The notes under the pieces: model-generated
The model's database searches: none
The model's input: the letters and a program-made list of their open reading frames with translations, nothing else
Told to the model about the DNA's origin: nothing
NCBI GenBank assembly: GCA_965249725.1
Contig: CBDFMQ010000002.1
Span: forward strand, 1,888,001-1,952,000
Direction: 5' to 3'
DNA length: 64,000 nt
Origin: Longimicrobiales bacterium
GTDB taxonomy: Bacteria; Gemmatimonadota; Gemmatimonadetes; Longimicrobiales; Gaopeijiaceae
Shown: positions 15,455 to 40,489 of the stretch, one piece after another
Numbering within the stretch: the first letter of the stretch is position 1
Layout: each line of letters opens with the position of its first letter
Translations under genes and position numbers: made by a program

Positions 15455-15605
15455 GGCGCCCGGATGGAGCTGCGGTCGCCTTCGGCGATCCTCGCTCGTC
15501 TCGGCGGATACCACCTCGATCTTCGAAACCGACCCGCCGCCTCGGCTCGAACCGGGGACCTCTGCGTCCCGAACGCAGCGCTCTACCGGACTGAGCCACG
15601 CCCCG
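15455..15605 (-). pseudogene. Interrupted tRNA-Pro(CGG) copy 1 with an 81-nt T-loop insert (15466-15546)
   Basis: Identical to the intact tRNA up to GGTTCGA, then the insert, then ATCCGGGCGCC; last acceptor bases diverged. Confidence 0.88.
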
Positions 15606-15640
15606 AATTACTGCAACAACGACACCGGTCTATTCCTACC

Positions 15641-15792
15641 GGCGCCCGGATGGAGCTGCGGTCGCCTTCGGCGATCCTCGCTCGTCTCGGCGGTTACCTC
15701 CTCGGTCTTCGAGACCCTAACAGGCGCCTCGGCTCGAACCGGGGACCTCTGCGTCCCGAACGCAGCGCTCTACCGGACTGAGCCACGCCCCG
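15641..15792 (-). pseudogene. Interrupted tRNA-Pro(CGG) copy 2 with an 82-nt T-loop insert (15652-15733)
   Basis: Same layout as copy 1; tandem period 186-187 nt. Confidence 0.88.
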
Positions 15793-15868
15793 AATTCACA
15801 TCTGACCGCCCAAAACACGTTTCCGCGGAAACGTGACATACGGGAGCAAGCGGGCGGTACTTCCAACC

Positions 15869-15965
15869 ACGGGGTGGGATTGGCCGAGCTCCGCTCGTCC
15901 GTCTCGGCGAAGATCACCTCGATCTTCAATACCAGCCCGACGCCTCGGCTCGAACCGAATCCCAC
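15869..15965 (-). repeat. tRNA-Ser(GGA) 3' fragment with a 69-nt T-loop insert (15881-15949)
   Basis: GTGGGATTC-GGTTCGA-[GCCGAGGCG...CGCCGAGAC...]-ATCCCACCCCGT matches the 3' end of the adjacent Ser(GGA). Confidence 0.85.
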
Positions 15966-15990
15966 ACACTACGCATTCAAATACTTGAAA

Positions 15991-16074
15991 CGGACGGGGT
16001 GGGATTCGAACCCACGAGGGTGTTAACCCACACGATTTCCAATCGTGCGCCTTAAGCCGCTCGGCCACCCGTCC
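15991..16074 (-). tRNA. tRNA-Ser(GGA)
   Basis: CACGA-TT-GGA-AA-TCGTG anticodon arm, long variable arm. Confidence 0.95.
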
Positions 16075-16106
16075 TGGGGGAGAGCCGTTTGCGGGCTCTC
16101 AGGCAA

Positions 16107-16207
16107 CGGAGGGAGTGGGATGGGCCGAGCTTCGCTCGGCGGTCTCGGCGAAGATCACGCTGCTCTCCGAAGAACACCCTGCCGCCTCGGCTCGAACCGA
16201 ATCCCAC
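16107..16207 (-). repeat. tRNA-Ser(GCT) 3' fragment with a 70-nt T-loop insert (16122-16191)
   Basis: GTGGGATTC-GGTTCGA-[insert]-ATCCCACTCCCTCCG matches the 3' end of the adjacent Ser(GCT). Confidence 0.85.
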
Positions 16208-16233
16208 ATCCTACGCGTTCTCGTACCTCTTAG

Positions 16234-16317
16234 CGGAGGGAGTGGGATTCGAACCCACGCGGACTTGCGTCCAACGCCTTAGCAGGGCGTCGCCTTAAGC
16301 CACTCGGCCATCCCTCC
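16234..16317 (-). tRNA. tRNA-Ser(GCT)
   Basis: ACGCC-CT-GCT-AA-GGCGT anticodon arm. Confidence 0.95.
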
Positions 16318-16340
16318 CAGAGTGTGGTGTTCCTCACCAA

Positions 16341-16413
16341 TTGCCCCTCTAGGGCTCGAACCTAGACTCTCCGGAACCAGAATCCGGCGTGTTGCCAGTT
16401 ACACCAAGGGGCA
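16341..16413 (-). tRNA. tRNA-Gln(CTG)
   Basis: CCGGA-TT-CTG-GT-TCCGG anticodon arm. Confidence 0.95.
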
Positions 16414-16419
16414 CTTAAG

Positions 16420-16492
16420 AGCCACCTGTCGGATTTGAACCGACGACCCCGTCATTACGAGTGACGTGCTCTACCAACTGAGCTAAGGTGGC
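16420..16492 (-). tRNA. tRNA-Thr(CGT)
   Basis: CGTCA-CT-CGT-AA-TGACG anticodon arm. Confidence 0.95.
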
Positions 16493-16499
16493 AAAACAA

Positions 16500-16572
16500 T
16501 GGAGCCGAGGGGAATCGAACCCCTGACCTCAGCGTTGCGAACGCTGCGCTCTCCCAACTGAGCTACGGCCCC
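16500..16572 (-). tRNA. tRNA-Ala(CGC)
   Basis: CAGCG-TT-CGC-AA-CGCTG anticodon arm; G3:U70. Confidence 0.95.
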
Positions 16573-16619
16573 CCAAACTCGTCGGCCACCCGGCCATTTC
16601 CGCTGAGGGCCGCCTTTAG

Positions 16620-16693
<74 letters not shown>

Positions 16694-16726
16694 GATCCTG
16701 CCATGCCTGCCTGTTCCTACACTCAA

Positions 16727-16800
16727 CGCGCCCGGAGGGATTCGAACCCCCGACCTCCTGGTCCGTAGCCAGGCACTCTATCCAGCTGAGCTACGGGCGC
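16727..16800 (-). tRNA. tRNA-Arg(ACG)
   Basis: CCTGG-CT-ACG-GA-CCAGG anticodon arm. Confidence 0.95.
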
Positions 16801-16943
16801 ATAAATGAACTCGAAGACCACTCTTTTCGCGAGGCGATTTTGGTGCAGGGCAAGGCGCCCCGACTGAGGCGTACAAACGTACGCCGCAGGGAGGGTCGAC
16901 CGTAGTCCCGACGCCACCATGCGCCAAAAGCGTCCGCGAAAAA

Positions 16944-17027
16944 TGCCCACGACAGGACTCGAACCTGTACGCCGTTTCCGACACTGGTCCCTCAAACCAG
17001 CCTGTCTACCAATTCCAGCACGTGGGC
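16944..17027 (-). tRNA. tRNA-Leu(GAG)
   Basis: CTGGT-TT-GAG-GG-ACCAG anticodon arm, variable arm. Confidence 0.95.
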
Positions 17028-17064
17028 AAGTCTGCCTGAATCAAACCGAGTCGAGCAGCACAAA

Positions 17065-17149
17065 TGCTCGAGGAGGGACTCGAACCCTCACGGGGTTAAC
17101 CCCCACAGGGTCCTGAACCCTGCGCGTCTACCAATTCCGCCACCCGAGC
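17065..17149 (-). tRNA. tRNA-Leu(CAG)
   Basis: CAGGG-TT-CAG-GA-CCCTG anticodon arm, variable arm. Confidence 0.95.
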
Positions 17150-17164
17150 CTGATTCGAAAGCAG

Positions 17165-17237
<73 letters not shown>

Positions 17238-17277
17238 CTCCACACTTCACCTATGAACTTTCAAAAAGCACATCCAA

Positions 17278-17352
17278 CGGGGCTGACGGGACTTGAACCC
17301 GCGACCTCCGGTGTGACAGACCGGCACTCTAACCAAACTGAGCTACAGCCCC
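17278..17352 (-). tRNA. tRNA-Asp(GTC)
   Basis: CCGGT-CT-GTC-AC-ACCGG anticodon arm. Confidence 0.95.
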
Positions 17353-17365
17353 TTCCCTAAAAACT

Positions 17366-17434
17366 CCGGACTAAAAGTCCGGTTACTGCCCGGACTACGA
17401 AAGTCCGGTAACTGCTCCGGACTCGTAAGTCCGG
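17366..17434. repeat. Three tandem CCGGACT-Nx-AGTCCGG hairpins
   Basis: ccggactaaaagtccgg / ccggactacgaaagtccgg / ccggactcgtaagtccgg joined by t(t/a)actgc linkers. Confidence 0.9.
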
Positions 17435-17444
17435 TTCCTACCTA

Positions 17445-17516
17445 TGCCCTCACGGGGAATCGAACCCCGATTACCAGGTTGAAAACCTGGCGTCCTAACC
17501 GTTAGACGATGAGGGC
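17445..17516 (-). tRNA. tRNA-Glu(TTC)
   Basis: CCAGG-TT-TTC-AA-CCTGG anticodon arm. Confidence 0.95.
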
Positions 17517-17538
17517 GACCCCTCTATTCGTTTTCAAA

Positions 17539-17611
17539 CAGGCCCGGAGGGACTCGAACCCCCAACCCCCGGTTTTGGAGACCGGTGCTCTACCAGTTGA
17601 GCTACGGACCT
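17539..17611 (-). tRNA. tRNA-Trp(CCA)
   Basis: CCGGT-CT-CCA-AA-ACCGG anticodon arm. Confidence 0.95.
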
Positions 17612-17653
17612 CTGATTTCAAGTGACCGCGCCTGATGCGATCCGCACTGCAAG

Positions 17654-17726
17654 TGGCCAGGGGCGGAATCGAACCACCGACACCGCGATTTTCAGTCGCG
17701 TGCTCTACCAACTGAGCTACCTGGCC
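17654..17726 (-). tRNA. tRNA-Phe(GAA)
   Basis: CGCGA-CT-GAA-AA-TCGCG anticodon arm. Confidence 0.95.
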
Positions 17727-17955
17727 GACAAAAAAACCGCCCGAGGCCAGTTGGCTGCGGACGGTCTTGCGAGAGGTGCGGGCTCGAAGTCTCTAGCCGC
17801 GCCCCCCGACCGTCGTCGATCGCGAGCTAGACCACGTATCGGCCATCGTCCATCCGCGCGCCTGCGTGGCATCCGTCTGAAACATTCGGGCCGACTCCTC
17901 AATCCAGCTTCACCATCACATGGAAACGCCGCCCGAGGGCGGCGCTGAAACCAAA

Positions 17956-18029
<74 letters not shown>

Positions 18030-18040
18030 ATGAGAAGGAA

Positions 18041-18069
18041 AAGATATTCGAGATCTCAGAAAGGTTCAA
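18041..18069 (-). promoter_or_regulatory. Sigma70-type promoter for the tRNA array
   Basis: TTGAAC-N17-TATCTT ending 11 nt upstream of tRNA-fMet. Confidence 0.65.
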
Positions 18070-18141
18070 CCCCGATCTGCGTACCTGATCCTGCTAGATT
18101 CTAGGACTCGCAAGACCATGACTGTTAGAGGAGAAGCGATA

Positions 18142-18741
18142 ATGAAGGGACGTTGGAACTGGGCCATCGTGGGCGCCGTGCTCGCCCTACCCATGGCCGT
18201 CACCGCGCAGGAGCCCATGGGTGGAATGGAAGGCATGGAGGGCATGGACCCCGAGATGCAGGAGCGGATGCACACCCTGCACCTAGCCCAGGCGGGCGAC
18301 TTCGAGACCATGAGGGACAAGTTTCTCGCCCTTGCCGACGCGTTCCCCGAGGAGACCTGGGACTGGAGCCCGATGGAAGGCGTTCGGTCCGTCCGGGACG
18401 TGATGGCCCTGATTGTGGCCGAGGGATACCACTTCCCTTCGTCCTGGGGCGTGGAGCCTCCGGCCGGAGCCGAGAGCGGGTTCGGACCCGAGATGGAGCG
18501 GGTTGGCGCGATGTCGAAGAGCGAAGTCATCGCCGAGATGGAGAAGTCCTTCGACCATCTGATCACGACAACCAGCAATCTGACCCACATGCAGCACATA
18601 GGTGACGAGGCGGACTGGTTCGGCCGCAAGGTGTCGGTCGCCAACGCCATGATGCTCGCCGGCGGAGACATGCACGAGCACCTCGGGCAGTCGATCGCTT
18701 ACGCGCGCACGAATCACATCGTGCCGCCCTGGAGCCGGTAG
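18142..18741 (+). CDS. Secreted DinB family protein
   Basis: Signal peptide, 'WSPMEGVRSV', 'HEHLGQSIAYARTNHIVPPWS'. Confidence 0.85.
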   Translation: MKGRWNWAIVGAVLALPMAVTAQEPMGGMEGMEGMDPEMQERMHTLHLAQAGDFETMRDKFLALADAFPEETWDWSPMEGVRSVRDVMALIVAEGYHFPSSWGVEPPAGAESGFGPEMERVGAMSKSEVIAEMEKSFDHLITTTSNLTHMQHIGDEADWFGRKVSVANAMMLAGGDMHEHLGQSIAYARTNHIVPPWSR

Positions 18742-18835
18742 GGACGGCCCCTAGGTAGAGGAGTACCCAACGGGGGTGCGGCCGAGAGCCGTGCCCCCGT
18801 TTGTTCTTCGGGGGCGGATTCCACGGGCCTACGGC

Positions 18836-19519
18836 CTAGAAGGCTCTGCCGAAGTCCGCCTGGAGCTGTGCTCGGGTGATCTGGGTCGGATCGAGGAACG
18901 TGGGCGAGCCCCGGAGGCAATCGGCCGCCATGAGGTTGCCCTCCTCGGTGCACGCGACGTGGACCAACCCCAGCGAGTGACCCAGCTCATGGGCGAGGAT
19001 GCGAGCCATGCTGCCCGTGACGTCGCGTTGACCCTGAGGATCGATCTCGGCGGAGACTACCACCTTCTGTCTGGGTAGGTAGGCACCGCCGAGGGTGGGA
19101 CCGAAGTCACGGATGAGGAAGACGTTCCAGACGTCGGGGTCGATGTTGTCCCGGGCCAAAACGGTCGGGAGGGCGTTGACCGGGCTGAGGGCTTGGTTGA
19201 CCAGGGCTTCGCGGAAGGCGGACTCGCTGCGGGCGTCCTCGCGGACGACGGTCTCTAGTGTCAAGGTGATGCCGGCTTGGGACCAGGTCTGGTTGACGGC
19301 GGCGATGAGGGTCTGGGCTTCCGCGTCGGTCAGGCGGGCGTTGAGGGCGTCCAGTTGGGTGGACTGCACGACGTGCAGGCGGACGTCCAGCGCGATGATG
19401 CCGGGCGTTTCGGTGGCGGGACCGGTCGGCTCATCGACGGCGTCGGAGCAGGCCCCGATGATGAAGACGACCGCTGCCAGGACCGAGAATCGGGTGGCGG
19501 AATGGGCTCTTTGCGTCAC
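18836..19519 (-). CDS. Lipoprotein metzincin zinc metalloprotease
   Basis: Lipobox-like 'IGAC'; HELGHSLGLVH zinc motif and a Met-turn 'NLM'. Confidence 0.85.
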   Translation of the reverse strand: MTQRAHSATRFSVLAAVVFIIGACSDAVDEPTGPATETPGIIALDVRLHVVQSTQLDALNARLTDAEAQTLIAAVNQTWSQAGITLTLETVVREDARSESAFREALVNQALSPVNALPTVLARDNIDPDVWNVFLIRDFGPTLGGAYLPRQKVVVSAEIDPQGQRDVTGSMARILAHELGHSLGLVHVACTEEGNLMAADCLRGSPTFLDPTQITRAQLQADFGRAF

Positions 19520-19732
19520 GTGTTCCCGCTTGGTGATGGGTGCAGGTCATACGGGCTCGCCACATGCAGGGTTCCACCTAGCGTCGAGGTAGCCCTGCAA
19601 AGGCGGAGCGCTACCCGAATCTTGGAGGGTCATCCAACCACCGCATCCGGTCCCACACATAGGCATGGCTGGCGCCCCTCCCCCACCGGCCACACCTTAA
19701 CAACGCGCTCCTTCAAGTGAGAGAGTCGACAC

Positions 19733-22627: not shown

Positions 22628-22701
22628 CGGGACGTGGCGCAGCTCGGTAGCGCACCTGAATGGGGTTCAGGGGGTCGCCGGTTCGAATCCGGCCGTCCCG
22701 A
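22628..22701 (+). tRNA. tRNA-Pro(GGG)
   Basis: CGGGACG..CCTGA-AT-GGG-GT-TCAGG..GGTTCGAATCC..CGTCCCGA. Confidence 0.95.
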
Positions 22702-22894
22702 TTCATTGTGGAATAACGAGTTACGGGAACGGCTGCCTATTGAATAGGTGGCCGTTTCTCATGCCTACGTCGACTGCTCGAAAGAGCGTCCTTGTGCTCT
22801 CCACCTTTCGACTACCGCCGCTCTCCCAGCGATAGCACATAACGGTTCTGAGTTGCCGACGTGCCGAAGGCATGTCCCGTAGCGAAGCGAAGGG

Positions 22895-23059
22895 AGGGTT
22901 GTTCATCGGCTGGATGTCTACTTCGATTGACGTCCGCAGTCCCGGCGGCGCGGTCGGATGCTCACCAAGGATCGCTTGAGATCCAAAGACGAACAAATCA
23001 GTGTCGTCCGCGACGTCGCATGCCGCCCGGATGGCATGTTCAAGTTGATCGCGGGTCAT
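22895..23059 (-). pseudogene. Truncated nucleotidyltransferase-like (DUF6036-type) gene
   Basis: 'MTRDQLEHAIRAAC..FVFGSQAILG..SIEVDI' (GS..ExD) breaks off after about 55 aa. Confidence 0.65.
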
Positions 23060-23996
23060 TCTGTATCTCTAGATAGAGAAGAACCTCGTCTCGCTCATCG
23101 GCCGCCAAGGCAGCAAGAAACGGCGAGCTCTGTCGGAGTCGCTGGGCTCGGGAAGTCGTAGACACTAAGAACTCGCGAAGTCGCTCAATGGAATACTGCG
23201 ACAGTATGCTATGCCACTCTCGGAGATCATGAGCTGCTGCTCCCTGGTCTTTTTCCAAGACAAGCTCAAGGTGTCTAATCGCCCTCCGAACCAGCGACGG
23301 GTCGCGATCTAAGAGATCACTCACCGCTTCCGCTAGCCTCAATGCCCGCCGGTCACGGTCTCCATGGCCCGGAGGAGGACGGCTCGACGCGAGGGCTTCT
23401 ACGGAAGGCACGCCGGCGAGCAACGTCATCTTAGCCCAGTCAATGTTGGGTGCATCCGCACGACTGAAGCTGTGTACCTCGATGGTCAAGTCAAAGTCTC
23501 GCTCCACCTCCGCGATACGACTACGGATCTCGTCACTCAGCCACGCCAGTGAACCTGACTCTCCGACCACGCCAATGTGCAGCGGCTCTCCAGGCCGGGC
23601 CGGTGGGGCATCGAGCCAGGCAACTCGTATTTCGGTGAGGCTTTCAAGGGTATTGCGGATGCTCGCAAGTAGTCTCTGGTATCGGTCACTCTCACCTCGA
23701 AAGAGTGGAACGAGCTGTCTTGCGACCAGATCGTCGGTTCGTAATTCGAACTGCCGGGACCGTCCCCCGCCGACTCTTCGCACGAACCCAGTCTTGGCGA
23801 GGCGACCCAGCGCTCGCCGGGCACCGGCCTCCGTGAGGCCAGACCGATCTGCAGCATCGGCCACTGTAATCGGCCCAACTATCTCGTCAGCGAGAACTCT
23901 GAGGAGGCGTACCTGTGCCTTGGTTCCAAGTAGATCGTTAAGGGGGAACCGAAGCGTGTCTTGTTCTATCGCAATGGGTCTCATGTTGATACGCAA
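23040..23996 (-). CDS. wHTH plus nucleotidyltransferase-like protein (probable antitoxin or regulator)
   Basis: N-terminal HTH 'VADAADRSGLTEAGARRALGRLAKTGFV'; C-terminal 'SRAQRLRQSSPF'; overlaps the downstream NTase gene. Confidence 0.65.
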   Translation of the reverse strand: MRINMRPIAIEQDTLRFPLNDLLGTKAQVRLLRVLADEIVGPITVADAADRSGLTEAGARRALGRLAKTGFVRRVGGGRSRQFELRTDDLVARQLVPLFRGESDRYQRLLASIRNTLESLTEIRVAWLDAPPARPGEPLHIGVVGESGSLAWLSDEIRSRIAEVERDFDLTIEVHSFSRADAPNIDWAKMTLLAGVPSVEALASSRPPPGHGDRDRRALRLAEAVSDLLDRDPSLVRRAIRHLELVLEKDQGAAAHDLREWHSILSQYSIERLREFLVSTTSRAQRLRQSSPFLAALAADERDEVLLYLEIQNDPRST

Positions 23997-24005
23997 GTTC
24001 TGTAA

Positions 24006-24173: not shown

Positions 24174-24433
24174 CGGACACACGCACGGACACTCTTTTAG
24201 GGCCGGCAGAGTCCGGCATCCCCTCCCGCAAGAAACGGCAGATCGTGCACCCTACCAGTGATTTACACGGTTTCTTGCCGCCATTCGGCTAGTTGAAGGC
24301 TCGAATGGGGTTCAGGGGGTCGCCGGTTCGAGCCGAGGCGGCAGTGAGGCCTTCCGCGATGCGGCCAAAACACTCACCGCCGAGACGACCGGAGATCGCC
24401 GAAGGCGATCGGAGGTCAATCCGGCCGTCCCGA
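24174..24433 (+). mobile_element. att-like junction: element-end module plus tRNA-Pro(GGG) 3' half with an 87-nt T-loop insert (24332-24418)
   Basis: GAATGGGGTTCAGGGGGTCGCCGGTTCGA-[insert]-ATCCGGCCGTCCCGA; 24204-24314 is repeated at 37367-37477. Confidence 0.85.
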
Positions 24434-24629: not shown

Positions 24630-25790
24630 TCAGCCCCGCTCACCGCTCTCGCTGAACAGTTGCATATATCTATCGAAGGCGAACATGCGATAGGTCTTCC
24701 TGCCGGTCGTTTCCCGCAAGACTCCGACCTTCTCCAACGCATTGGTGAGGGCGTTCGCAGCGGGCTGCGACAACCCGGTAATCGCCTTCACCTGCTTAAC
24801 GGTCACGATCGGAGTTCGAAACAGCTCTTCAAGGAGATCAAGCGCCGAGCCGGCGCGGCGTCCGAGCCGCTGATTGATCTCCGCTCTCGTCTCTTCTCGA
24901 AGGTTGACGATGTGTCGTGCGGTTGTGGTAGCTTCCTCTGAGACCGAGGCGACAGCCTCGAGGAAGAACGCCAGCCATCCCTCCCAGTCTCCCTTCTCCC
25001 GAATCGCTTGGAGTCGATCGTAGTACTCCTGACGGTGGCGTTTGAAGAATATCGAGAGATAGAGGATGGGCTCACGAAGCACTCGTTCGTGAACGAGCAT
25101 GAACGTGATCAAGAGCCGGCCGACCCTGCCGTTTCCATCCAGAAAAGGATGCACCGTCTCAAAGTGGGCGTGGGCAAGAGCGACGCGGATCAGTATGGGG
25201 AGGTCGGACTCGGCGTGGAGGAAGTCCTCGATCTGATAGAGTGAATCTCGCATCTCCGAGACAGGCGGAGGGACGAATCGAGCCGTTTCAGGTGTTGGAC
25301 CGCCGATCCAGTTCTGGGACTTACGGAACTCACCCGGGGTTTTCGACGACTCGCCTCCACGGACCCCGGTCATCAGCTTCTCATGGATCTCACGGATCAA
25401 CCGGAGCGACAGAGGAAGGTCCTTTACTCGATCGAGCCCAAAGCGCAACGCGTCGATGTAGTTCGTGATCTCTCGAACATCTACCCGCCGGTCACTCCGC
25501 TCCATCTGTGCTTCGTACTCCAGCAGATCGACTAGAGAGGCTTCGGTTCCTTCGATCTGACTAGATAGCACCGCTTCCCGGCGAACGTACATGAAGACGA
25601 ATAGGTCGGGATCCGGCAGGATTTCGGCAGATCCCACCAATCGTCCCAACGCCAAGGTTGCCCTTTCCAACAGGTCTGCTAGAGAATCCAATTGGAGGTC
25701 TCCCGGAGGGAACGCTTCGGGGATGAACGCCGCAAATCCTCCAGCCTGTTTCCGGAACACCCCTGCCCTGTGCTTGCTATCAGTGACCAC
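24630..25790 (-). CDS. Fic family protein (N-terminal extension, C-terminal HTH)
   Basis: HPFLDGNGRVGR Fic motif; 'REAVLSSQIEGT'; 'PGEFRKSQNWIGG'. Confidence 0.92.
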   Translation of the reverse strand: MVTDSKHRAGVFRKQAGGFAAFIPEAFPPGDLQLDSLADLLERATLALGRLVGSAEILPDPDLFVFMYVRREAVLSSQIEGTEASLVDLLEYEAQMERSDRRVDVREITNYIDALRFGLDRVKDLPLSLRLIREIHEKLMTGVRGGESSKTPGEFRKSQNWIGGPTPETARFVPPPVSEMRDSLYQIEDFLHAESDLPILIRVALAHAHFETVHPFLDGNGRVGRLLITFMLVHERVLREPILYLSIFFKRHRQEYYDRLQAIREKGDWEGWLAFFLEAVASVSEEATTTARHIVNLREETRAEINQRLGRRAGSALDLLEELFRTPIVTVKQVKAITGLSQPAANALTNALEKVGVLRETTGRKTYRMFAFDRYMQLFSESGERG

Positions 25791-27606: not shown

Positions 27607-28780
27607 TCAGAGCCCACCAACGGGCTGCGCCTCGTCGGGCCCACTTTCGCGGAGGCGCTCTGCCTGGCGCTCGTCGAGGAATGCGATCACAGCCACGCCG
27701 ACAAGCGCGATGCCGAGCGTGACGATGGGCGGCATGCCGGCCACCAGGTAGAGTGCAAGCGCGGCGGCACTGGCAATCAAAACGCGTCGCACCGGCGTCC
27801 CGCACGTGGCACGCCACATCGCTAGGGCCGTGCCACCAACGAAGAGCATGAGTCCGAGCGCGATCGCAAGGCGACCCGAGCCTGGGAGCGGCTCTGTAGG
27901 GTGAGCCAGGGCCTCCTCGAGCCCCACAGCATAGGCGATCACGCCACACAGCATGGGGAAGTGGCCGAAGGTCAACGCGTCCCGCGCAACGTTGGTGCGG
28001 ACCCTGCCCTCCGTTCGCTTCAGCGCGGCCTCCAACTCCGGCTTTGCGATCGGAAAGTAGGTCCACCACAGTCCGCACGAGATCGCCACGGCCAGGACGG
28101 CGGTGAGGAGCAATTGTCCCTGCAGCTCCGCACCGACCAAGGCTGCTGCCGCGACGATCAGTGACTCCCCAAGGGCGATTATCACGATCAGGCCGTGGCG
28201 CTCCGCGAAGTGCTCGGGGTGGATCTCCCACGCCCCATCGTCGCCCGCCGATGTAGCTGCGACGAAGTCCAAGAAGATCGTCATGCCCCACAAGTACAGC
28301 AGGGTGGAGCCGCCGAGGAATCCGCCCAACAAGGCTGTCCCTAAGCCGCCGATCGACAGCGCTCCAAAGCTCTTCACCGCCCTGCGCATCGTGGGGTGAG
28401 CGACTTCACGCGACCCATAGGTAGAGGCTCAAGCCTACGACGCGAACACCCACATACGTGCCGGCGAACCAAAGCGCGCCGTTCCCCTCTTCGAATACGC
28501 TCGGGATCGACACCGCCATGAAGAATGCGATAGCGGTCGCGACAAGCGTTGCGAACTCGACGAACGGATGTGTTGTGTCAGCAGCGTTAAGCGCCCACGT
28601 GAACTGCGTCCACGCCCACCAGACCATCCAGAAGACGAGGACGGTCTTCCCGGCCCCAACCCAGGTAAGGTCGTGGTGCAGGAGTCCGACAAGCTGGGTG
28701 ACCCCGAAGACGAACACGAGGTCGAAGAAGAGCTCGACGAAGGTGGCGCTCTGACCGATGGGGGAGACGATTGCCCTCAT
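27607..28780 (-). CDS. ltrA: Low temperature requirement protein A (LtrA), frameshifted near 28405
   Basis: 'ATFVELFFDLVFVF..WWAW' and 'HFAERHGLIVIIALGES..LWWTYF'. Confidence 0.85.
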
Positions 28781-33670: not shown

Positions 33671-33806
33671 GCAGGGCGTGCAGGCCTGCGGCGGAGTATG
33701 GCTAGACGCTGGCTTGATCTCGAACGTCCCGAAAAGTGTGCCACTCCCCCCGACACCATCCTAGAACCCCAGAATGACGCCCGATTTAGTGTGCCGATTA
33801 GTTACC

Positions 33807-33844
33807 GAATGGGGTGCATTTGTGGGGGCTTCAGTGGGTCGGGT
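33807..33844 (+). repeat. Degenerate att-like junction
   Basis: GAATGGGGTGCATTTGTGGGGGCTTCAGTGGGTCGGGT is similar to 37466-37503. Confidence 0.65.
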
Positions 33845-33855
33845 CCCGGGTTAGT

Positions 33856-35043
33856 TCAACGGGCGGCGACCAGGCCTGGCCGGCCGGCCGGAAGACCCGA
33901 TAGCACCTTACCCGACAGCACCGCCCCCAGGAGCAGGATCGGGACCGTCCATCCCGCGGTCGCGTCATGGAGGTAACCGAATACGGCGGGGCCGATGGCG
34001 GCCACGAAGTAGCCCACCGACTGGGCCATGCCCGACAGCTCGCCCGCGGACTCGGCGTCGGGCGCGCGAAGCACCAGCAGCGTCAGTGCCAGCCCGAAGG
34101 TGCCGCCCAGGATGAAGCCGAGCAGCGAGACCCAGAGGGCTGCGAGCATACCACCCGGCAGGAGCAAGCCGCCCAGTCCCACGGCCTCGAGAACGGCGAG
34201 GGTCCAGATGATCCGGCGCTGGTCGGCCAACGTTCCGGCCCAGACCGGTATGAGGGCGGTTCCCAGAATCCCAGTGACTTGAGAGAGGGCGAGCATCCAA
34301 CCGGCGGCGGCCTCGCTGAGACCGCGACTCTGCAGAAGGTCGGGGAGCCAAGCGATGATGACGTAGAACGTGAGGGACTGGAGTCCCATGTAGAGAGCCA
34401 CCTGCCAGGCCAGCCTCGAGCGCCCCAGGACCCGGAGCGTGACCCCACCCGGCCGCCGGACCTGTAGCGCCGGCCGGGGCCCGGAGAGTTGGACGAGCCA
34501 CACGAGCAGCGCGAACACGGCCGGGAGCACCCCAATGCCCAGTGCTCCACGCCAGCCGAAGACCGCCGCGAGCGGTACGCTCAGCCCCGCCGCGGCGGTC
34601 GCGCCGAGCCCCATCATGCTCGAGTACAGGCTGGTGATCGGCCCGGGGTGGGCCGGGAAGTCACGCTTCGCTAGCACCGGCAGCAGGACGTTCCCAAGCG
34701 CGACCCCGACGCCCATGAGACTTGTCCCGAGATAGAGTGCCACGACCGACTCCGCGGCCCGGAGCCCGGTGCCGACGGCCAAGAGCACGAGCGCGAGAGC
34801 CACCGTCCGCTCGACCCCCACCCGGCGACTCACGACCGAGGTGAACGGGGACACGCACCCAAAGGCCAGGAGAGGCAGGGTCGTTAGCAGCCCGAGCGCA
34901 GTGTTGGAGAGCCCCGTGGCGGGTCGCATGACGGAGACCAAGGGCCCGACACTGGCGATCGCGGAACGGAGGTTCAGCGCGACGAGGACGATGCCGACGA
35001 TCAGAAGCAATCGGCGTGGGGAGGAGGAGGGAGACGGAGTCAT
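33856..35043 (-). CDS. CynX/NimT-type MFS transporter
   Basis: 'ALNLRSAIASVGPL', 'LGLLTTLPLLAFG', 'LSGMAQSVGY'. Confidence 0.9.
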   Translation of the reverse strand: MTPSPSSSPRRLLLIVGIVLVALNLRSAIASVGPLVSVMRPATGLSNTALGLLTTLPLLAFGCVSPFTSVVSRRVGVERTVALALVLLAVGTGLRAAESVVALYLGTSLMGVGVALGNVLLPVLAKRDFPAHPGPITSLYSSMMGLGATAAAGLSVPLAAVFGWRGALGIGVLPAVFALLVWLVQLSGPRPALQVRRPGGVTLRVLGRSRLAWQVALYMGLQSLTFYVIIAWLPDLLQSRGLSEAAAGWMLALSQVTGILGTALIPVWAGTLADQRRIIWTLAVLEAVGLGGLLLPGGMLAALWVSLLGFILGGTFGLALTLLVLRAPDAESAGELSGMAQSVGYFVAAIGPAVFGYLHDATAGWTVPILLLGAVLSGKVLSGLPAGRPGLVAAR

Positions 35044-35177
35044 GGAAGGAAGGGTCCGCCGGCCTCCGGGTGTCTATGCGGTTTCTTACCGCCATTCGTA
35101 AACATATGGAGTCGCATGGGGTCCAGCCGCAAACAGCGGCAGGAAACAGTCCCGGAAGTCAGATCGGACACGGCGCG

Positions 35178-37118
35178 CTACCCCCCCGCCCTCCCCGACT
35201 TCAAATGCTCGTCGAAGAACTCCAGCATGTCGAGGAGCATTTGTCGCACGTTGTCCCGGTTGGAGACGTAGTAGTCCTCGTCGTAGTAGACCTTCGCCCG
35301 GTGGGGCTTGTAGTGGCGCTCGAGCTCAGCGACGTAGCGGGCGGAGCTGTCCGACGCGGGCCAGCGGCCTTCTCCCCAGATCACGAACTGGGGTGTGTTG
35401 ACCTGCTCCACCCAGAACTGCGGTGAGACGTATCGGTAGGTCTCCTCGTTGCCCTCGAGTGGTCCGAACTCGTCTTCCGCCTGCTTGATGTGGCGGAGCT
35501 CTTGCGTATGGTAGTAGTGGATTCGATCAGCCGTCCCTCCGTGTGGGATGGACGCCCGGAATACATCAGGCGCGAACGTCGCACCCGCCATGCTGAGGAG
35601 CCCACCGTGGCTCGTCCCTGTGATTCCCATGTTGTCGGGGTCCACGTAGGGGAGCGTCTTGAGGTACTCCACACCCGCAACCAGGTCGTCGAGATCGCAG
35701 TGAGCCCAGCAGCCGTCGTTCAGGTCCGCGAACTCCCGCCCGTAGCCCGCTCCTCCGCGGAAGTTCGGTGCCAGGACAGCGTAGCCCTGCTCGGCGAAGA
35801 ACTGCATCTGAGTCTGGTACGTGTCGATGTATTGGCCGGTGGGTCCCCCGTGCGCGAACACGATTCCCGGCAGACGCTCCCCTTCGCGGATCGTCCTCGG
35901 GCGGAACAGGTAGGCGTTGATCCTCAGGCCGTCGCTCTGGTATGTGACCTTCTCGGGCACGATGAGCGCGTCGCCCGCGTTGCCCCCGGGAGAGGAGTCG
36001 GTCAAGCGCCGCGGTTCGCGGCTGTCCACGTCGATCACGAACAGGTCGGCGGCCTCGGTAGGCGTCTGGAGGGTGTAGCTGATCCGCCTGCCGTCCGGAG
36101 ACCACTCGGGCGCGCGCACGACGCCCATCCCCGGATCGACGAGAACGTCGGAGCGCCCCCCGGACGCCGCCGCGACGCGCAAATCGAACGTGCCATTACG
36201 GTTCGTCACGTAGGCGATCCGGCGGCCGTCCGGCGACCAGCGCGCGTCGCTCTGGTCCCAGGACTCCGGCGCGATCGGTCGAGGCTCCCCTCCCTGGATC
36301 GGCACCGTGTAGTAGTTGATCCAGCCACTCCGCCAGGATCGGAACAGAACCGTGCTCCCGTCCGGCGAAACCCGAGGCGGCGAGAAGTTCGGCGTCCCGG
36401 ACGACGTGCTGTAGTCGAAGAAGTCGGTGTCACGCACTACGAGCCGCATCCCCGAGCCGTCGGCGTTCATGATCATGACGTCGTGGTCCACCCAGTGGTC
36501 GTCGACGACCACGTAGACGATGCTCCGCGAATCCGGCGTCCACGTCGGTCCGATCTCGTAGCGCTCGTCGTTGGTGAGCCTCTCCACCCGTCCGTCGGGC
36601 ACCGAGACCCGCCAGATGTCGTAGTTCCCCGCGCCCCCGCCGGTGAACGTGATCCATCGACCATCGGGCGACCAGCTCGTCGTCGTCATGCGAGCGCCGA
36701 GGTGTGTGAGGCGCACGTCGCGGCCGTCCACGGCCGACCAGAGCCAGAGGTCCGGCGCGCCGTCCTCGGATCCACGGTCCGAGACGTAGGAGACCCACTC
36801 TCCGGTCGGTGACCATCGCGGGTGCCGGGCGAGCTGGAACGGGACCCCCCCGATGTCCTCCGCCATGCGACGCGGGAAGCCGCCCTCGGCCGGCACGCTC
36901 CAGAGCCCTCCCCCGAGAAGGCCCGAGGCGAACATGATCTCTGTCCCATCCGGGGACCATCGGGGTGGCTCGCCCGACAGCACGGAGCGTATGGACTGCA
37001 CCCGATCGACCCACTCTTCGGCGGGAAAGCGCGGATGCTGGGCTTTCGCAGTCGCGGGAATGTAGAGGGGGATGAGGCAGAGGGGTGCCCATCGTGCCAA
37101 CGCTTGCCGTGAGATCAT
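35178..37118 (-). CDS. S9 family peptidase-like protein with PD40/TolB propeller
   Basis: Repeated 'WSPDG', 'HGGP', 'PNFRG..GYG', nucleophile elbow GTSHGG. Confidence 0.88.
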   Translation of the reverse strand: MISRQALARWAPLCLIPLYIPATAKAQHPRFPAEEWVDRVQSIRSVLSGEPPRWSPDGTEIMFASGLLGGGLWSVPAEGGFPRRMAEDIGGVPFQLARHPRWSPTGEWVSYVSDRGSEDGAPDLWLWSAVDGRDVRLTHLGARMTTTSWSPDGRWITFTGGGAGNYDIWRVSVPDGRVERLTNDERYEIGPTWTPDSRSIVYVVVDDHWVDHDVMIMNADGSGMRLVVRDTDFFDYSTSSGTPNFSPPRVSPDGSTVLFRSWRSGWINYYTVPIQGGEPRPIAPESWDQSDARWSPDGRRIAYVTNRNGTFDLRVAAASGGRSDVLVDPGMGVVRAPEWSPDGRRISYTLQTPTEAADLFVIDVDSREPRRLTDSSPGGNAGDALIVPEKVTYQSDGLRINAYLFRPRTIREGERLPGIVFAHGGPTGQYIDTYQTQMQFFAEQGYAVLAPNFRGGAGYGREFADLNDGCWAHCDLDDLVAGVEYLKTLPYVDPDNMGITGTSHGGLLSMAGATFAPDVFRASIPHGGTADRIHYYHTQELRHIKQAEDEFGPLEGNEETYRYVSPQFWVEQVNTPQFVIWGEGRWPASDSSARYVAELERHYKPHRAKVYYDEDYYVSNRDNVRQMLLDMLEFFDEHLKSGRAGG

Positions 37119-37319
37119 GGTGTCGGCCTCCTTCGAGACGTGGCGTAGAGGTGTGCCGCTGCCGGTGGCAACGCTCCTCGAGCGCATTCGGGCAGTGCAT
37201 TGAGGCGGGATAAGGCGTCAGACATGGCCGCAAGATGCGCCTAGGTCGTGTTGGGCCACAAGCGTTACAGGCCCCCGCCTCCGAGGACGACGCACCTGAC
37301 ACCCGACGGGGCGTCATCT

Positions 37320-37503
37320 GTGTCCGTTCGCGTGCCCATTGGGCCCGTTATTGTGCCTCCAAATGACGGCAGATTCCGGCATCCCTTCCGGCAAGAAACG
37401 GCAGATCGTGCGCCCTACCAGTGGTTTACACGGTTTCTTGCCGCCATTCGGCTAGTTGAAGGCTCGAATGGGGTTCACTTGTCCGTGCTTCAGTGGGTCG
37501 GGT
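37320..37503 (+). mobile_element. Element-end module and att-like core
   Basis: 111 nt (37367-37477) match 24204-24314 with about 5 mismatches, ending in the tRNA-Pro anticodon-loop core GAATGGGGTTCA. Confidence 0.82.
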
Positions 37504-37504
37504 G

Positions 37505-40171
37505 CTACCGCCCTCCCGTCACTTCCTGCACCCAGTTGCGGACGAGGACTAGCTGGGCCTGCGCCGCCCCCCCGACTCGCGTGGAGAAGAGGAAGCGGCC
37601 GTCGGGCGCGACGTCGAAGAGTCGGCGTTGAACGTCGGTCCTCAGCGAGGGGTCCAACTCGAAGAGCCGCTCGCGTGACTCGACGACGAAGCTCGACGCG
37701 TCATGTGTCACCGTGGCGCTCCACATGCACCCGTCCAGGCCGATGAAGAAGACTTCCCCGCCGTCCCTCGACCACATGGCCTGAGAACCGCCCTCGATCG
37801 AGACCGACTCAACGCGGCCGCCCTCGGGATACGGTTGAGCGTAGACTTCGTCACGTCCCGACTGATTGGAGGTATAGACGAGCCAGTTCCCGTCGGGGGA
37901 GGGTTCCGGGCTTCGCTCGTTGAACGCCCGGTCGAGCCATGGCTCCGGCGCGTCATGCTCGCCCGGATCGAAGCGCCAGATGCTCCGAAGCGAGGCGCCG
38001 GGCATGCGCACCAAGAGCTCCCGGCCGTTTCGGGTCCACCACGCGTCAGCGGGCATGCCAGAGAGCTCGACGATGCTCTCGGCCACCCCCGACCCGCCCG
38101 TGGTGATGGACATGACCCAAGTGCGCGAGTCGCGTGAGCCGATGAACGAGATCCGTGGCTCCGTCGGATGCCACTGCGGACGTACACTCACCCCGTCCCG
38201 CGTGAGCGGAAGCCGTGAGCGTCCCACCAGGTCGAAGACCCAAATGTCCTGCTCGCCGAGGCTCTCCGATCCGCTTGCCCATGCGGCAACGACCGAATCT
38301 CCCGAGGCGGACAGGGCAACTCCCTCGAAGCCGCCCGGCTCGATCCAGTCGATGAGTTGGGCCTGACCAGCCCGATTCAGCCAGACGAGCTGTTCCGTGT
38401 CGCCGGCGGCGCCGCTCGCGTAAACGAGCGTCCCGTCGTCTGCAACCGCAAACTCCGCGCCCGTTGGCCCGCTCAAGCCAACCTGAGCGGAGGTCGATAC
38501 GGCCGGGCCGGTCGCGCTCAAGGTCTTGAGATCAAACGGTCGGACGAGGAGCGCGTTGTCCTCGAGCCGTCGGTAGACGATGTGTCCCGAACTCAAGTAT
38601 CGCGGCCGCCTTCCCTCTCCGAGGTCGTGCGCCTCGCCTGCCGCGATGTCGACGGCGAACATCGTCGTGTTCGACACGGTTCCCGACGTTAAGATCGCTC
38701 CGATGCCGGGAAGCACGTCCGACACGACACCCACGACGCCGATGTCGCCCAGCGACACCGATTCGGCCGAGCCGGGCATCCAGCGCCTCAACTCCGGCAG
38801 TTCCGGCACCGTGTAGTAGATCGCCCCGTCATCTCCCCAGGCGAAGCGTGCATTGGCCTCCAACCACACGGGAGTCCCGCCCTCGGCCGGCATCACGCCG
38901 ACGCCCCGCTCCTGCACCCGGAACGCTAGAAATTGGCCGTCTCGGGAGAACTGGGGGGCAACCGCTGATCCAGTGCCCGCGATCGGAGTCGCCTCCAGCT
39001 CGTTCAGGCGTCTCAGCCAGAGCTGGTGCGTCTGGCCCGCATCGCCCCGGCCCCGGTAGACGAGCTGGCTTCCGTCGGGACTCAGCGCCATGGCCGACTG
39101 ATCAAGGAACATGGCGGCTTTGGAGAACTCCTGACCTTGGGGCGTGGTAAGACCCACGCGCGTCACAGGTGCAGGCGCCGGTTCGTCTCCCAGGCTCCAA
39201 GCTGCCACGCCCGTTGCCACCGCCGCGACGACCCACGGGAGCGCGGTGGTCCAACGCCGTGCCGACGTGGCTGTTCTGGCGGTCGCAACCGCAACGGGCG
39301 CCGCCGTCGTCCGTGCCACGGTCTCATACCTGAACCCCACATCATCGAGGGCCGTCATGAACTCGGCCGCGCTTTCGAACCGGTCGGCGGGGAGCTTCTC
39401 CAACGCCCGGGCCAATACCCCCTCGACGTGTGGAGGCACCGTTCTCCGGACCGCGGTGATAGGGGGCGCATCCGTCGTGAGGATCTTGACCAAGACCGCT
39501 TGGGCGCTGGAGGCCGAAAACGGCGGATCACCGGAGAGCATCTCGTACAGAACACATCCGAGCGCATAGACGTCCGACCGGGGATCGACATCCCGGTCGC
39601 CCGTGGCCTGCTCGGGACTCATGTAGTGGGGAGTGCCCAGGCTGAGCCCAGTCTCGGTGATGCGACCGGAACCCGCCTGGGCAACGGCGAGCGCGATCCC
39701 GAAGTCGGCCACCAGCGGCTCTCCACGTTCACTGAGCAGAACGTTCGCGGGCTTGATGTCCCGGTGGACCACGCCGCGCTCGTGCGCGTAGTCCAGTGCG
39801 TCGGCGACCTTGGTGGTGATCGCGAGGGCGTCCTTTACACCGAGTTGCTTCTCGCGGTCGATCCTCTGCCTGAGCGTTTCCCCCTCGACGAACGGCATGA
39901 CGTAGTAGAGGAAGCCGTCGGCTTCACCGGAATCATGGAGTGGCAGGATATGCGGGTGTTGGAGGTTGGCGGTGGTCTTGATCTCGGCGAGGAACCGCTC
40001 GGCGCCGACCACGGCCGCCAGCTCGGGCTTGAGGACCTTGAGCGCTATCTTGCGCTCGTGCTTTAGATCGTCGGCCAGGTAGACCGTAGCCATCCCGCCT
40101 TCGCCGAGTTCACGCTCAATGGCGTAGCGGCCCTCGAGAGTCGCGTTCAGCCGGGTGACGGGGTCAGACAT
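37505..40171 (-). CDS. Ser/Thr protein kinase with a C-terminal TolB/PD40 propeller
   Basis: GEGGMATVY, HRDIKPAN, DFG, GTPHYMSPE, one TM helix, 'SPDG' repeats. Confidence 0.93.
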   Translation of the reverse strand: MSDPVTRLNATLEGRYAIERELGEGGMATVYLADDLKHERKIALKVLKPELAAVVGAERFLAEIKTTANLQHPHILPLHDSGEADGFLYYVMPFVEGETLRQRIDREKQLGVKDALAITTKVADALDYAHERGVVHRDIKPANVLLSERGEPLVADFGIALAVAQAGSGRITETGLSLGTPHYMSPEQATGDRDVDPRSDVYALGCVLYEMLSGDPPFSASSAQAVLVKILTTDAPPITAVRRTVPPHVEGVLARALEKLPADRFESAAEFMTALDDVGFRYETVARTTAAPVAVATARTATSARRWTTALPWVVAAVATGVAAWSLGDEPAPAPVTRVGLTTPQGQEFSKAAMFLDQSAMALSPDGSQLVYRGRGDAGQTHQLWLRRLNELEATPIAGTGSAVAPQFSRDGQFLAFRVQERGVGVMPAEGGTPVWLEANARFAWGDDGAIYYTVPELPELRRWMPGSAESVSLGDIGVVGVVSDVLPGIGAILTSGTVSNTTMFAVDIAAGEAHDLGEGRRPRYLSSGHIVYRRLEDNALLVRPFDLKTLSATGPAVSTSAQVGLSGPTGAEFAVADDGTLVYASGAAGDTEQLVWLNRAGQAQLIDWIEPGGFEGVALSASGDSVVAAWASGSESLGEQDIWVFDLVGRSRLPLTRDGVSVRPQWHPTEPRISFIGSRDSRTWVMSITTGGSGVAESIVELSGMPADAWWTRNGRELLVRMPGASLRSIWRFDPGEHDAPEPWLDRAFNERSPEPSPDGNWLVYTSNQSGRDEVYAQPYPEGGRVESVSIEGGSQAMWSRDGGEVFFIGLDGCMWSATVTHDASSFVVESRERLFELDPSLRTDVQRRLFDVAPDGRFLFSTRVGGAAQAQLVLVRNWVQEVTGGR

Positions 40172-40262
40172 GCCCGCAAGATGAGCCTAAGTTGCGCCCT
40201 GCCACAAGGATCGCTCACTCACCGGCTACCTCGGCCGTCAAAGGACCTGTCGGACGGGTCCC

Positions 40263-40489
40263 CTCCAATACGTTCTCCAATAGTTGACCCTCCTAGATGC
40301 CCGGAAACACCGATCCCGATCCCGGGCCATCCACTCCGAAACCGCACTGAAACCAGGCATTTCCCCGTGATTTGGCGTATAAGCTGTGGGGAATGGGTTT
40401 CAGGGGGTCGCCGGTTCGAGGCGAGGCGGCTGTGAGGTCTTCCGCGGTGTAGGTCAGATGCTCACCGCAGGTCAATCCGGCCGTCCCGA
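40263..40489 (+). mobile_element. att-like junction: arm-like repeats plus tRNA-Pro(GGG) 3' half (40391-40489) with a 55-nt T-loop insert (40420-40474)
   Basis: GAATGGGTTTCAGGGGGTCGCCGGTTCGA-[GGCGAGGCGG..CTCACCGCAGGTCA]-ATCCGGCCGTCCCGA; CTCCAATA direct repeats at 40263 and 40275. Confidence 0.82.

Follow-up and report, generated by a model that had tools for sequence, protein, structure and literature searches.

The window, a 64,000-nt stretch of the Longimicrobiales bacterium GCA_965249725.1 genome, was analyzed together with the rest of the host genome and with its relatives. Six inserts were confirmed in it between GGTTCGA and ATCC, at the coordinates given by the initial annotation, and all four cognate tRNA genes were found intact, as claimed there. 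The relevant features are the following:

15345..15419, minus strand: intact tRNA-Pro(CGG) (tRNA search)
15452..15605, minus strand: interrupted tRNA-Pro(CGG) copy (5' part 15547-15605, decayed 3' part 15452-15465)
15466..15546, minus strand: element copy 1, 81 nt, at position 58/59 of the full-length tRNA-Pro(CGG) copy (sequence and covariance model)
15638..15792, minus strand: second interrupted tRNA-Pro(CGG) copy (5' part 15734-15792, decayed 3' part 15638-15651)
15652..15733, minus strand: element copy 2, 82 nt, at 58/59 of the second tRNA-Pro(CGG) copy
15869..15880, minus strand: displaced, decaying tRNA-Ser(GGA) 3' fragment (sequence)
15881..15949, minus strand: element copy 3, 69 nt, within the tRNA-Ser(GGA) unit
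15950..16005, minus strand: 56-nt companion unit at tRNA-Ser(GGA) (sequence)
15991..16074, minus strand: intact tRNA-Ser(GGA) (tRNA search)
16107..16121, minus strand: displaced tRNA-Ser(GCT) 3' fragment (sequence)
16122..16191, minus strand: element copy 4, 70 nt, within the tRNA-Ser(GCT) unit
16192..16248, minus strand: 57-nt companion unit at tRNA-Ser(GCT), of the same design as at tRNA-Ser(GGA) (sequence)
16233..16317, minus strand: intact tRNA-Ser(GCT) (tRNA search)
22628..22701, plus strand: intact tRNA-Pro(GGG) (tRNA search)
24303..24433, plus strand: attR-like tRNA-Pro(GGG) half, from the anticodon arm onward, containing copy 5 (sequence)
24332..24418, plus strand: element copy 5, 87 nt, within this displaced 3' half
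40391..40489, plus strand: second attR-like tRNA-Pro(GGG) half, containing copy 6 (sequence)
40420..40474, plus strand: element copy 6, 55 nt, internally deleted, within the second displaced 3' half

The element is non-coding and measures about 69-96 nt. The ends of the five full window copies were placed exactly by a covariance model, all five being part of its training set, while copy 6 lacks about 32 nt, apparently through a deletion between two ACCGC repeats, judging from its sequence. Copies 1 and 2 have identical second hairpins and different variable loops. Support from other sequencing was uneven, as both Ser inserts were spanned by contigs of two other studies with 0-1 differences and the Pro(CGG) copies were covered in pieces only, by one low-depth run. 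In the host genome, a 20-base core pattern gave 14 matches against none for the reversed control, so these matches are not due to chance; in total, 19 full copies and 2 broken ones were counted there, and the element is present in 68 of the 151 genomes of the host family. Copy 5 had no blastn match in plasmid or phage collections, and viral contigs gave nine matches with a loose pattern (eight of them read, one a near-duplicate), which were judged to be chance, and none with two stricter patterns. The initial annotation recognized no named family for these small, structured and non-autonomous inserts, in agreement with the Rfam search, where tRNAs were the only matches in the window at gathering score and weaker ones (E up to 10) were all below it.

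The shared target is GA^AT(C), entered cleanly and without duplication: of 126 model matches, 107 have GA as their 5' flank and 101 have ATC as their 3' flank, and the target-site duplication amounts to 0-1 nt in 198 of 235 elements. Nine of the 14 tRNA types with a TTCGAATC T-loop were hit, compared with one of 34 other types (p = 1e-5). The proposed restriction to T-loops proved too narrow, as attC sites hold 6 of the 19 full copies of the host genome, with the GA^AT junction falling in the L box of the top strand. Including relatives, the range covers tRNA T-loops (58/59), tRNA-Pro(GGG) 31/32, tmRNA, attC L boxes and occasionally coding DNA, with two cases inside IS91-type transposase remnants. 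The element always lies in tRNA sense or on the top strand of attC; the leading/lagging-strand bias that was observed is confounded with the orientation of tRNA genes and attC sites. In one attC family, filled and empty sites coexist, and the element is identical in three filled sites with different left flanks, observations that we counted as support for mobility. Ten head-to-tail tandem pairs were found, whose joints would be at most an indirect sign of a circular intermediate; neither a circle nor a precise-excision joint was seen in the contigs of four runs, in which rare circles would be invisible.

The fold consists of two abutting hairpins followed by one final base (A or C). The first hairpin begins with base 1 of the element; its 9-bp stem includes an invariant CGAG/CGAG sheared-pair block and leads through an open loop of about 7 x 11 nt to a distal stem-loop. 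The second abuts it directly and is capped by a C(GNA)G loop (196 of 235 elements; GNRA in 7, UUCG in none). A GGCG/CGCC helix kept while the enclosed sequence changes had been taken as a sign of structure, and the covariance model that we built bears this out: 94% of cells are paired with two-sided changes at 20 of 21 pairs in an alignment fitted to the model, a level reached in 0 of 500 shuffles (slid controls, 26-45%), and a plain MAFFT alignment still gives 93% and 13 of 21 pairs. Pairwise identity is 0.78-0.84 in stems versus 0.34 in loops, which is near random. Single-sequence folding z-scores are modest as RNA (-0.8 to -2.6), and the structural support comes from covariation rather than from them; folding energy hardly distinguishes one strand from the other, or DNA from RNA (150 vs. 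145 of 235), and is uninformative on strand asymmetry. The CGAG/CGAG block and the C(GNA)G triloops are DNA-hairpin features, CGAG blocks and GNA triloops being stable DNA structures according to PMC10085684. As an internal control, 19 of 22 attC-pattern matches in the host genome carry GC(GNA)GC on the bottom strand, the one used in ssDNA recombination (PMC5027507).

At core tRNA loci an intact gene lies beside the element, often through a companion unit of 34-146 nt that supplies a new 3' end, in line with the earlier suggestion that the inserts spread among tRNA loci on spare copies; they were found on spare copies or fragments beside the intact gene. The 56-nt unit of tRNA-Ser(GGA) comprises the tRNA 3' end from position 59, a spacer, an inverted copy of the 3' strand of the T-arm, and GGTTCGA. 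The flanks had been described as always matching the cognate tRNA, which holds in part: left of the Ser inserts, the sequence beyond GGTTCGA differs from the 5' side of the cognate tRNA and carries an inverted copy of the tRNA 3' arm, and the acceptor 3' strand is decayed in both Pro(CGG) copies. Companion units also build tandem arrays, and one genus has perfect inverted copies of the tRNA 3' half. Empty units (hairpin followed directly by ATC) gave five matches in 101 genomes, none at a tRNA, and the small cargo ORFs between tRNA and element had no Pfam match or encoded HTH proteins. The spare tRNA array of genome G059 has three of its seven GA^ATC tRNAs filled and none of its other tRNAs, with the element alone and no regenerated copy beside the filled ones (counted by eye). 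tRNA-targeting genomic islands likewise leave attL/attR fragments, regenerate an intact gene and displace its 3' fragment, and the two tRNA-Pro(GGG) halves may be attR-like ends closing a 1.6-kb island (24303..24433) and a 16-kb stretch (40391..40489). Unlike such islands, the units of 34-146 nt have no integrase and often an inverted target copy, and the inner element also inserts alone.

The initial annotation had offered an intron- or ribozyme-like RNA among its options, and a tiny intron that leaves the pre-tRNA by splicing and is propagated through reverse splicing and reverse transcription would suit an element that is always on the transcribed strand, the more so as the three filled tRNAs of the G059 array become perfect cloverleaves after in-silico removal and tandem G.A pairs form in RNA too. 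However, in-silico excision yields an ARAGORN tRNA in 19 of 223 cases and none in 204, and a full 7-bp acceptor stem in 3 of 223; the full-length tRNA copies of the window have decayed acceptor stems, and an intact gene adjoins the element at the core loci examined. Most copies thus lie in fragments unable to become a tRNA by splicing, which argues against an intron. The loops are GNA triloops and not GNRA or UUCG, RT genes co-occur weakly, group I/II termini are absent (n = 235, 69-96 nt: no GTGYG, no AY, two ending in G, no exon ending in T), and so is the hammerhead CUGANGA...GAAA core (0/235). Archaeal non-canonical tRNA introns at 58/59 are of similar size; the element differs from them by its bacterial host, its mostly non-functional fragments, its presence outside RNA genes, and the absence of a bulge-helix-bulge (checked by hand on the window copies, where exon -6..-3 is unpaired with insert -6..-3). 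In one RNA run, coverage was limited to conserved tRNA parts and came from other organisms, and it is uninformative on splicing. The inserts cause tRNA finders to report false genes. We consider an intron or ribozyme very improbable, and the element looks like an undescribed miniature mobile element instead. A MITE was the closest of the options offered, although the terminal inverted repeats and target duplication of a classical MITE are missing.

Nearest-neighbour elements agree in the tRNA that they target in 98 of 184 cases, more than in the background, and much of the spread may thus be old and vertical. The element could accordingly be an old, partly domesticated module, now inherited vertically, multiplied by duplication and gene conversion, and retained for a benefit to the host, for instance because it blocks integrases, or acts as a decoy for them, at tRNA 3' ends and attC sites, or because it fixes islands in place by spoiling their attR. 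Besides this clustering by target, such a history would fit the recurrence of units at the same tRNAs (Ser GCT, Ser GGA, Pro CGG, Cys, Arg CCG) in many genera, the resemblance of the companion units of one tRNA across genera, the location of several copies within attR-like fragments, and stems still conserved with no enzyme nearby. Against it, clean single insertions occur in attC, tmRNA, 31/32, transposase genes and array tRNAs, unrelated targets that call for a targeting reaction beyond duplication alone; moreover, species within one genus differ in whether they carry the element, and deleted copies are frequent. We regard domestication as unlikely.

Among known mobile systems, REP/REPIN/BIME sequences with TnpA(REP) and the peel-and-paste elements of the IS200/IS605 type share several traits with the element (PMC8266576), being short, non-coding ssDNA hairpins that are cut at a short nearby motif and moved in trans without target duplication. 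In contrast to them, the element has two abutting hairpins, a large open loop and a strict GA^AT target in tRNA/attC, the GTAG tetranucleotide of REP/RAYT is found at the 5' hairpin foot in 0 of 235 elements, and a Y1 HUH transposase was not found in the host genome and is present in 7 of 151 family genomes, with no element near eight such loci. IS1111-attC elements such as ISKpn4 and ISPst6 (PMC11187229) also insert precisely into attC, through a circle and with no extra bases; the element has no transposase, its loops do not match the flanks, and it lacks the subterminal inverted repeats of 11-13 bp that lie 7 and 3 nt from the ends in IS1111/IS110 (the best agreement was 8 of 12 positions, mode 3). 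The IS1111-type element of the host genome occupies the same attC family several bases away, with unrelated ends. For the IS91 family, bioRxiv 10.1101/2025.01.24.634351 reports ssDNA circles, use of one strand only, a short target, no target duplication, subterminal palindromes and flank capture, but also CTTG/GTTC/CTCG targets instead of GA^AT, and oriIS-like motifs were found at transposase ends only, not on the element. Integron attC sites (PMC5027507) are structure-conserved, sequence-variable ssDNA hairpins (with GNA loops in the host genome) recombining as single strands, whereas the element has no RYYYAAC/GTTRRRY box, its junction is not at AAC, and it folds on the strand opposite to the recombining one.

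Small hairpin repeats that act as ssDNA and are cut a few bases from the stem are also described for Ssn NTS/SRM repeats in PMC11893778, where SsnA cuts ssDNA near such repeats. The element might then be an orphan hairpin of an Ssn-like GIY-YIG cassette, a nick beside the hairpin and its repair both spreading the hairpins and building duplicated or inverted tRNA pieces; the perfect inverted 3'-half copies of one genus do resemble fold-back repair. The element is, however, longer, two-hairpin and site-specific, the published SRM motif occurs in 0 of 235 elements and is not enriched in the host genome (42 vs. 44-55 in shuffles), and no ssnA-like gene was found. Both GIY-YIG matches of the host genome lie within long UvrC-type frames, UvrC saturates the profile across the family (146/151 genomes), and four small GIY-YIG genes in relatives have neither tRNA nor element nearby. 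A single-domain GIY-YIG gene flanked by a repeat was found neither in the host genome nor at these four matches, with a filter that may miss short divergent genes. We judge this origin quite improbable.

The search for the moving enzyme gave no autonomous, ORF-bearing version at 75 distinct metagenome right ends (a few ended at contig ends or were degenerate), no enzyme that recurred next to the copies among the 1,582 open frames in the flanking loci, and no Y1 transposase, Cas1 or Ssn-like nuclease in the host genome. With related genomes counted as independent, and with a first model that missed divergent copies, IntI was found in 33 of 68 element-bearing versus 9 of 83 other family genomes (odds ratio 7.8) and Y2 transposase in 43 of 68 versus 19 of 83 (odds ratio 5.8), with weaker values for IS110 (2.4) and RT (2.5); 17 of the 68 element-bearing genomes have neither IntI nor Y2. 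Neither known cut rule fits: IntI cuts in AAC and IS91 uses its own tetranucleotides, and the junction matches neither. Other candidates were rejected: the multi-copy IS91-type elements of G011 and G164, which have other ends and sites; and the IS1111-type element and single RT gene of the host genome, which show no link to the element. A guide-loop system (bridge/seekRNA- or TIGR-like) was likewise rejected, as the 7-nt and 11-nt loops show no pairing, either with one another or with the flanks of the same element, which they matched no better than shuffled flanks in 79 elements.

We favour, with moderate confidence, an insertion element that is non-autonomous, works as folded single-stranded DNA and is moved in trans through a single strand exchange. 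The element would exit as a closed dumbbell, whose joint would be the head-to-tail joint of the tandem pairs, and would enter, through this exchange, a target that is transiently single-stranded and forms a hairpin. The chemistry would be provided in trans by a transesterase, the lead candidates being an HUH (IS91-type) enzyme or an integron integrase acting outside its known rule. As insertion would inactivate the tRNA copy, only events that leave or regenerate an intact gene should survive. It is also conceivable, if somewhat doubtful, that a new, shape-defined class of mobile DNA has its first representatives in the element and its companion unit, with splint-regenerated tRNA and a protein or DNA catalyst. 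A single-stranded dumbbell would here join a hairpin target without homology by one strand exchange, forming a four-way junction, and the inverted tRNA arm would serve as a built-in splint, with which the unit could insert into an essential tRNA gene and still restore it. Catalysis would come from an unrecognized protein or, with lower probability, from the folded DNA. Should a second, unrelated phylum share this design, the system would span phyla.

Phages, islands and gene cassettes integrate mainly at tRNA genes and attC sites. Here, an 80-base parasite enters both at one base step in nearly half of the genomes of the family, and points to an as yet unrecorded activity of single-strand recombination. 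The short target rule and hundreds of natural variants define the important bases, making direct testing with oligonucleotides possible, and the element matters for the interpretation of tRNA-gene fragments and of bacterial 'tRNA introns'. If the splint idea is true, it would be a natural case of DNA-guided, duplication-free insertion.

All six inserts described in the initial annotation were recovered between GGTTCGA and ATCC, at the following positions of the window:
15466-15546, insert in a Pro(CGG) copy
15652-15733, insert in a second Pro(CGG) copy
15881-15949, insert in a Ser(GGA) 3' fragment
16122-16191, insert in a Ser(GCT) 3' fragment
24332-24418, insert in a Pro(GGG) 3' half
40420-40474, insert in a second Pro(GGG) 3' half, internally deleted

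The four cognate tRNAs are complete within the window, as had been stated, and a search against Rfam returned only tRNAs at the gathering score, i.e., no family match for the inserts. The Ser(GGA) insert is spanned by contigs of two other studies (0 differences) and the Ser(GCT) insert by one of them (one difference), so that the inserts are no assembly artefact. One of these studies additionally contains a variant of the Ser(GGA) unit that differs at 8 positions and has a go-back joint, pointing to a tandem unit. At the Ser loci, the intact gene is followed by a companion unit (a segment supplying a new 3' end to the tRNA gene), the element and the displaced 3' fragment, at the Pro(CGG) locus the entire gene is copied upstream of its intact version, and the inserts in Pro(GGG) are located in attR-like, displaced tRNA halves. 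In the window at 22721-23996 and 24630-25790, a 1.6-kb island after tRNA-Pro(GGG) has genes for an HTH protein and a perhaps truncated product of 112 residues, and a Fic-domain gene comes after the first attR-like half; an LtrA-family gene at 27607-28780 is broken into two ORFs.

In the 4.16 Mb genome containing the window (G000), two covariance models detected 19 full copies (16 by the first and three more by the second). Of these, thirteen are in sequence derived from tRNAs and six in attC sites; the deleted copy of the window and a truncated one come in addition. When 185,579 species genomes were scanned with a strict pattern, 55 loci were obtained. Gemmatimonadota-type titles applied to 49 of them (many Longimicrobiales), and of the remaining six, four resembled chance when read. 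Within the host family the first model matched in 68 of 151 genomes, and in other families of the phylum in none of 134. The second found further divergent copies in genera initially scored negative, as well as a related hairpin repeat, away from tRNAs, in one genome among 101 from two sister families. In another phylum, of lower GC content, 3 of 65 genomes showed the same design at tRNA-Pro; these copies were not scored by the model, and wider relatives were therefore missed. The element was absent from the viral contigs, plasmids and phages searched. Some copies are in intergenic hairpins unrelated to tRNAs or attC sites (loci L271, L333, L033, L198, L200; one directly after an ssb-like gene), and two other genomes carry larger dispersed multi-hairpin repeats, not at tRNAs, that include H2-like (see below) or entire element-like modules (L352, L363, L370, L408 in G390; L354, L366, L373 in G101). 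A near-duplicate block from tRNA-Ser(TGA), with elements and cassettes (G000:C3:3783-7900 and 750846-753500), is either genuinely duplicated or a repeat produced by the assembly.

Of 126 distinct model matches, 107 had a 5' flank ending in GA and 101 a 3' flank beginning with ATC, and in the own genome a copy or fragment was found at 9 of 14 tRNA types with TTCGAATC vs. 1 of 34 other types. In this genome the attC family concerned also includes about 20 empty sites, which fix the insertion point there (GCAGA^ATCGC, L box, top strand). Outside T-loops, 18 copies are at CCTGA^ATGGGG of tRNA-Pro(GGG) (31/32), several in the tmRNA 3' arm at GA^CTC, and two as independent insertions in IS91-type transposase remnants (one in frame). 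Ten copies have another element directly 3' of them. T-loop targeting, as proposed initially, holds in so far as the matches do not lie mostly outside T-loops, but the T-loop as such is not the rule: the target is a short sequence within a hairpin. The apparent target duplication was 0-1 base in 198 of 235 copies. Members of this attC family also house an IS1111-type element whose subterminal repeats are 13 bp long (G000:C3:2273760-2275225, 754450-755915, with further copies near 5600 and 752800); it is inserted a few bases from the hairpin element's site, and one attC contains both.

For the anatomy, 273 distinct matches were pooled, partly from patterns requiring an upstream TTCGA or a fixed right end, and 235 well-formed ones (69-96 nt) were retained, leaving out 38 truncated or degenerate rows. 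The element consists of two hairpins abutting without a gap. H1 starts at base 1 with G-C, C.A, a CGAG/CGAG block (demanded by the filter, and nearly invariant in unfiltered alignments too) and three covarying pairs, followed by an open loop, typically 7 by 11 nt, with G at the sixth position of the long side in 185/235. Beyond the loop come a G-C pair, a bulge and a hairpin. The four closing pairs of H2 covary strongly, its loop is C(GNA)G in 196/235 (GNRA in 7, UUCG in none), and the final base of the element is A (136) or C (97). In both alignments, pair counts, which are inflated by relatedness, were higher than in every one of the 500 shuffles and every slid control. The stems are conserved and the loops near random, matching neither one another nor their own flanks. 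In divergent copies the GA/GA pair is swapped for GGA/GGA or GAA/GAA, which are zipper motifs of DNA. CGAG blocks and GNA triloops are weak in RNA. Both form stable DNA structures according to PMC10085684. The same C(GNA)G-type loop was present on the recombining strand of the own genome's attC sites (19 of 22 pattern matches), which act as single-stranded DNA.

An intron-like or ribozyme-like RNA had also been considered initially. At a relaxed threshold, removing the element in silico gave an ARAGORN tRNA over the junction in only 19 of 223 cases, three with a full acceptor stem, and signatures of group I, group II and hammerhead RNAs were absent from the set, which makes an RNA intron very unlikely. 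The three cases all belong to an extra tRNA array of a relative (G059), in which the element occupies three of seven GA^ATC genes without any regenerated copy; this fits the loss of dispensable genes, but also leaves splicing a small residual probability. This chromosomal array (L176, G059:C1:1036000-1038800) comprises about 20 divergent tRNA genes beside a transposase fragment, and three hold the element.

The order seen at the Ser loci is the usual one at core tRNAs. The companion unit begins at position 59, has a 3' end and trailer, closes with GGTTCGA, and often carries an inverted copy of the empty target. For 107 elements, a copy of the 3' flank was present within 150 nt upstream, at spacings of 34-146 nt, the full 150 nt being available for 214 elements. 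In 28/30 Cys and 28/41 Pro(CGG/TGG) cases, at least 13 of the 16 bases in the empty site are complementary to the inverted arm, which is a perfect inverted copy in one genus; an ungapped test found no such pairing for Ser, Arg or attC. Unit and element can be drawn by hand as a four-way junction, a fold that energy minimisation recovers only in part. Up to four units can stand in tandem, a cargo gene is present in two units at a Ser tRNA, and one pattern found no element-free units in 101 genomes. At a Ser tRNA fragment, L178 (G123:C27:36900-40800) has tandem 1.2-1.5-kb units, each with one element and a 195-198-residue gene of no Pfam family.

No enzyme moving the element was found in the genomes and flanks examined, and none of 75 right ends belonged to a long (autonomous) version. 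Y1 transposases are rare in the host family, Cas1 is absent from the own genome, and neither the SRM motif nor tiny GIY-YIG genes were found with the element. Co-occurrence was compared between genomes with and without the element, whereby kin are not independent and the negative genomes include missed copies: integron integrase (33/68 vs. 9/83), IS91-type Y2 transposase (43/68 vs. 19/83), IS110 (42/68 vs. 33/83) and RT (33/68 vs. 23/83). Seventeen element-positive genomes have neither integron integrase nor Y2, and the cut rules published for integron integrase (PMC5027507) and IS91 (bioRxiv 10.1101/2025.01.24.634351) do not fit GA^AT. The own genome's integron integrase gene (G000:C3:1028977-1029906) is separated from the Pro(TGG) unit by about 0.4 kb. 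In this region (G000:C3:1022000-1030600), the gene comes immediately after tRNA-Pro(TGG) on its downstream side and is followed by attC sites of the same orientation, and attC clusters are also dispersed elsewhere in the genome. Two relatives carry multi-copy elements with IS91-type transposase (G011, L410-L416, seven copies of about 2.5 kb; G164, L421-L423). Their ends are at R' boxes of attC type (GTTAG) and they are seemingly located in attC sites, one G011 copy adjoining the integron integrase. A lone 413-residue reverse transcriptase (G000:C3:198388-199629) falls under all NCBIfam cut-offs and weakly resembles DRT-type RTs. As to the nature of the element, a domesticated relic is unlikely, and orphan nuclease-cassette hairpins are somewhat less likely again.

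No description of the element was encountered in the searchable full-text literature (subscription papers were outside its scope, and supplementary motif lists could hold a relative), or in the available main text of PMC5737381, PMC8632094, PMC11187229, PMC8266576 and PMC11893778. Peel-and-paste, REP-type and SRM-type elements have a similar way of working, but when tested for membership the element belonged to none of them. Overall, we consider the element to be real, family-wide and apparently undescribed, and most likely a miniature insertion element working as folded single-stranded DNA.
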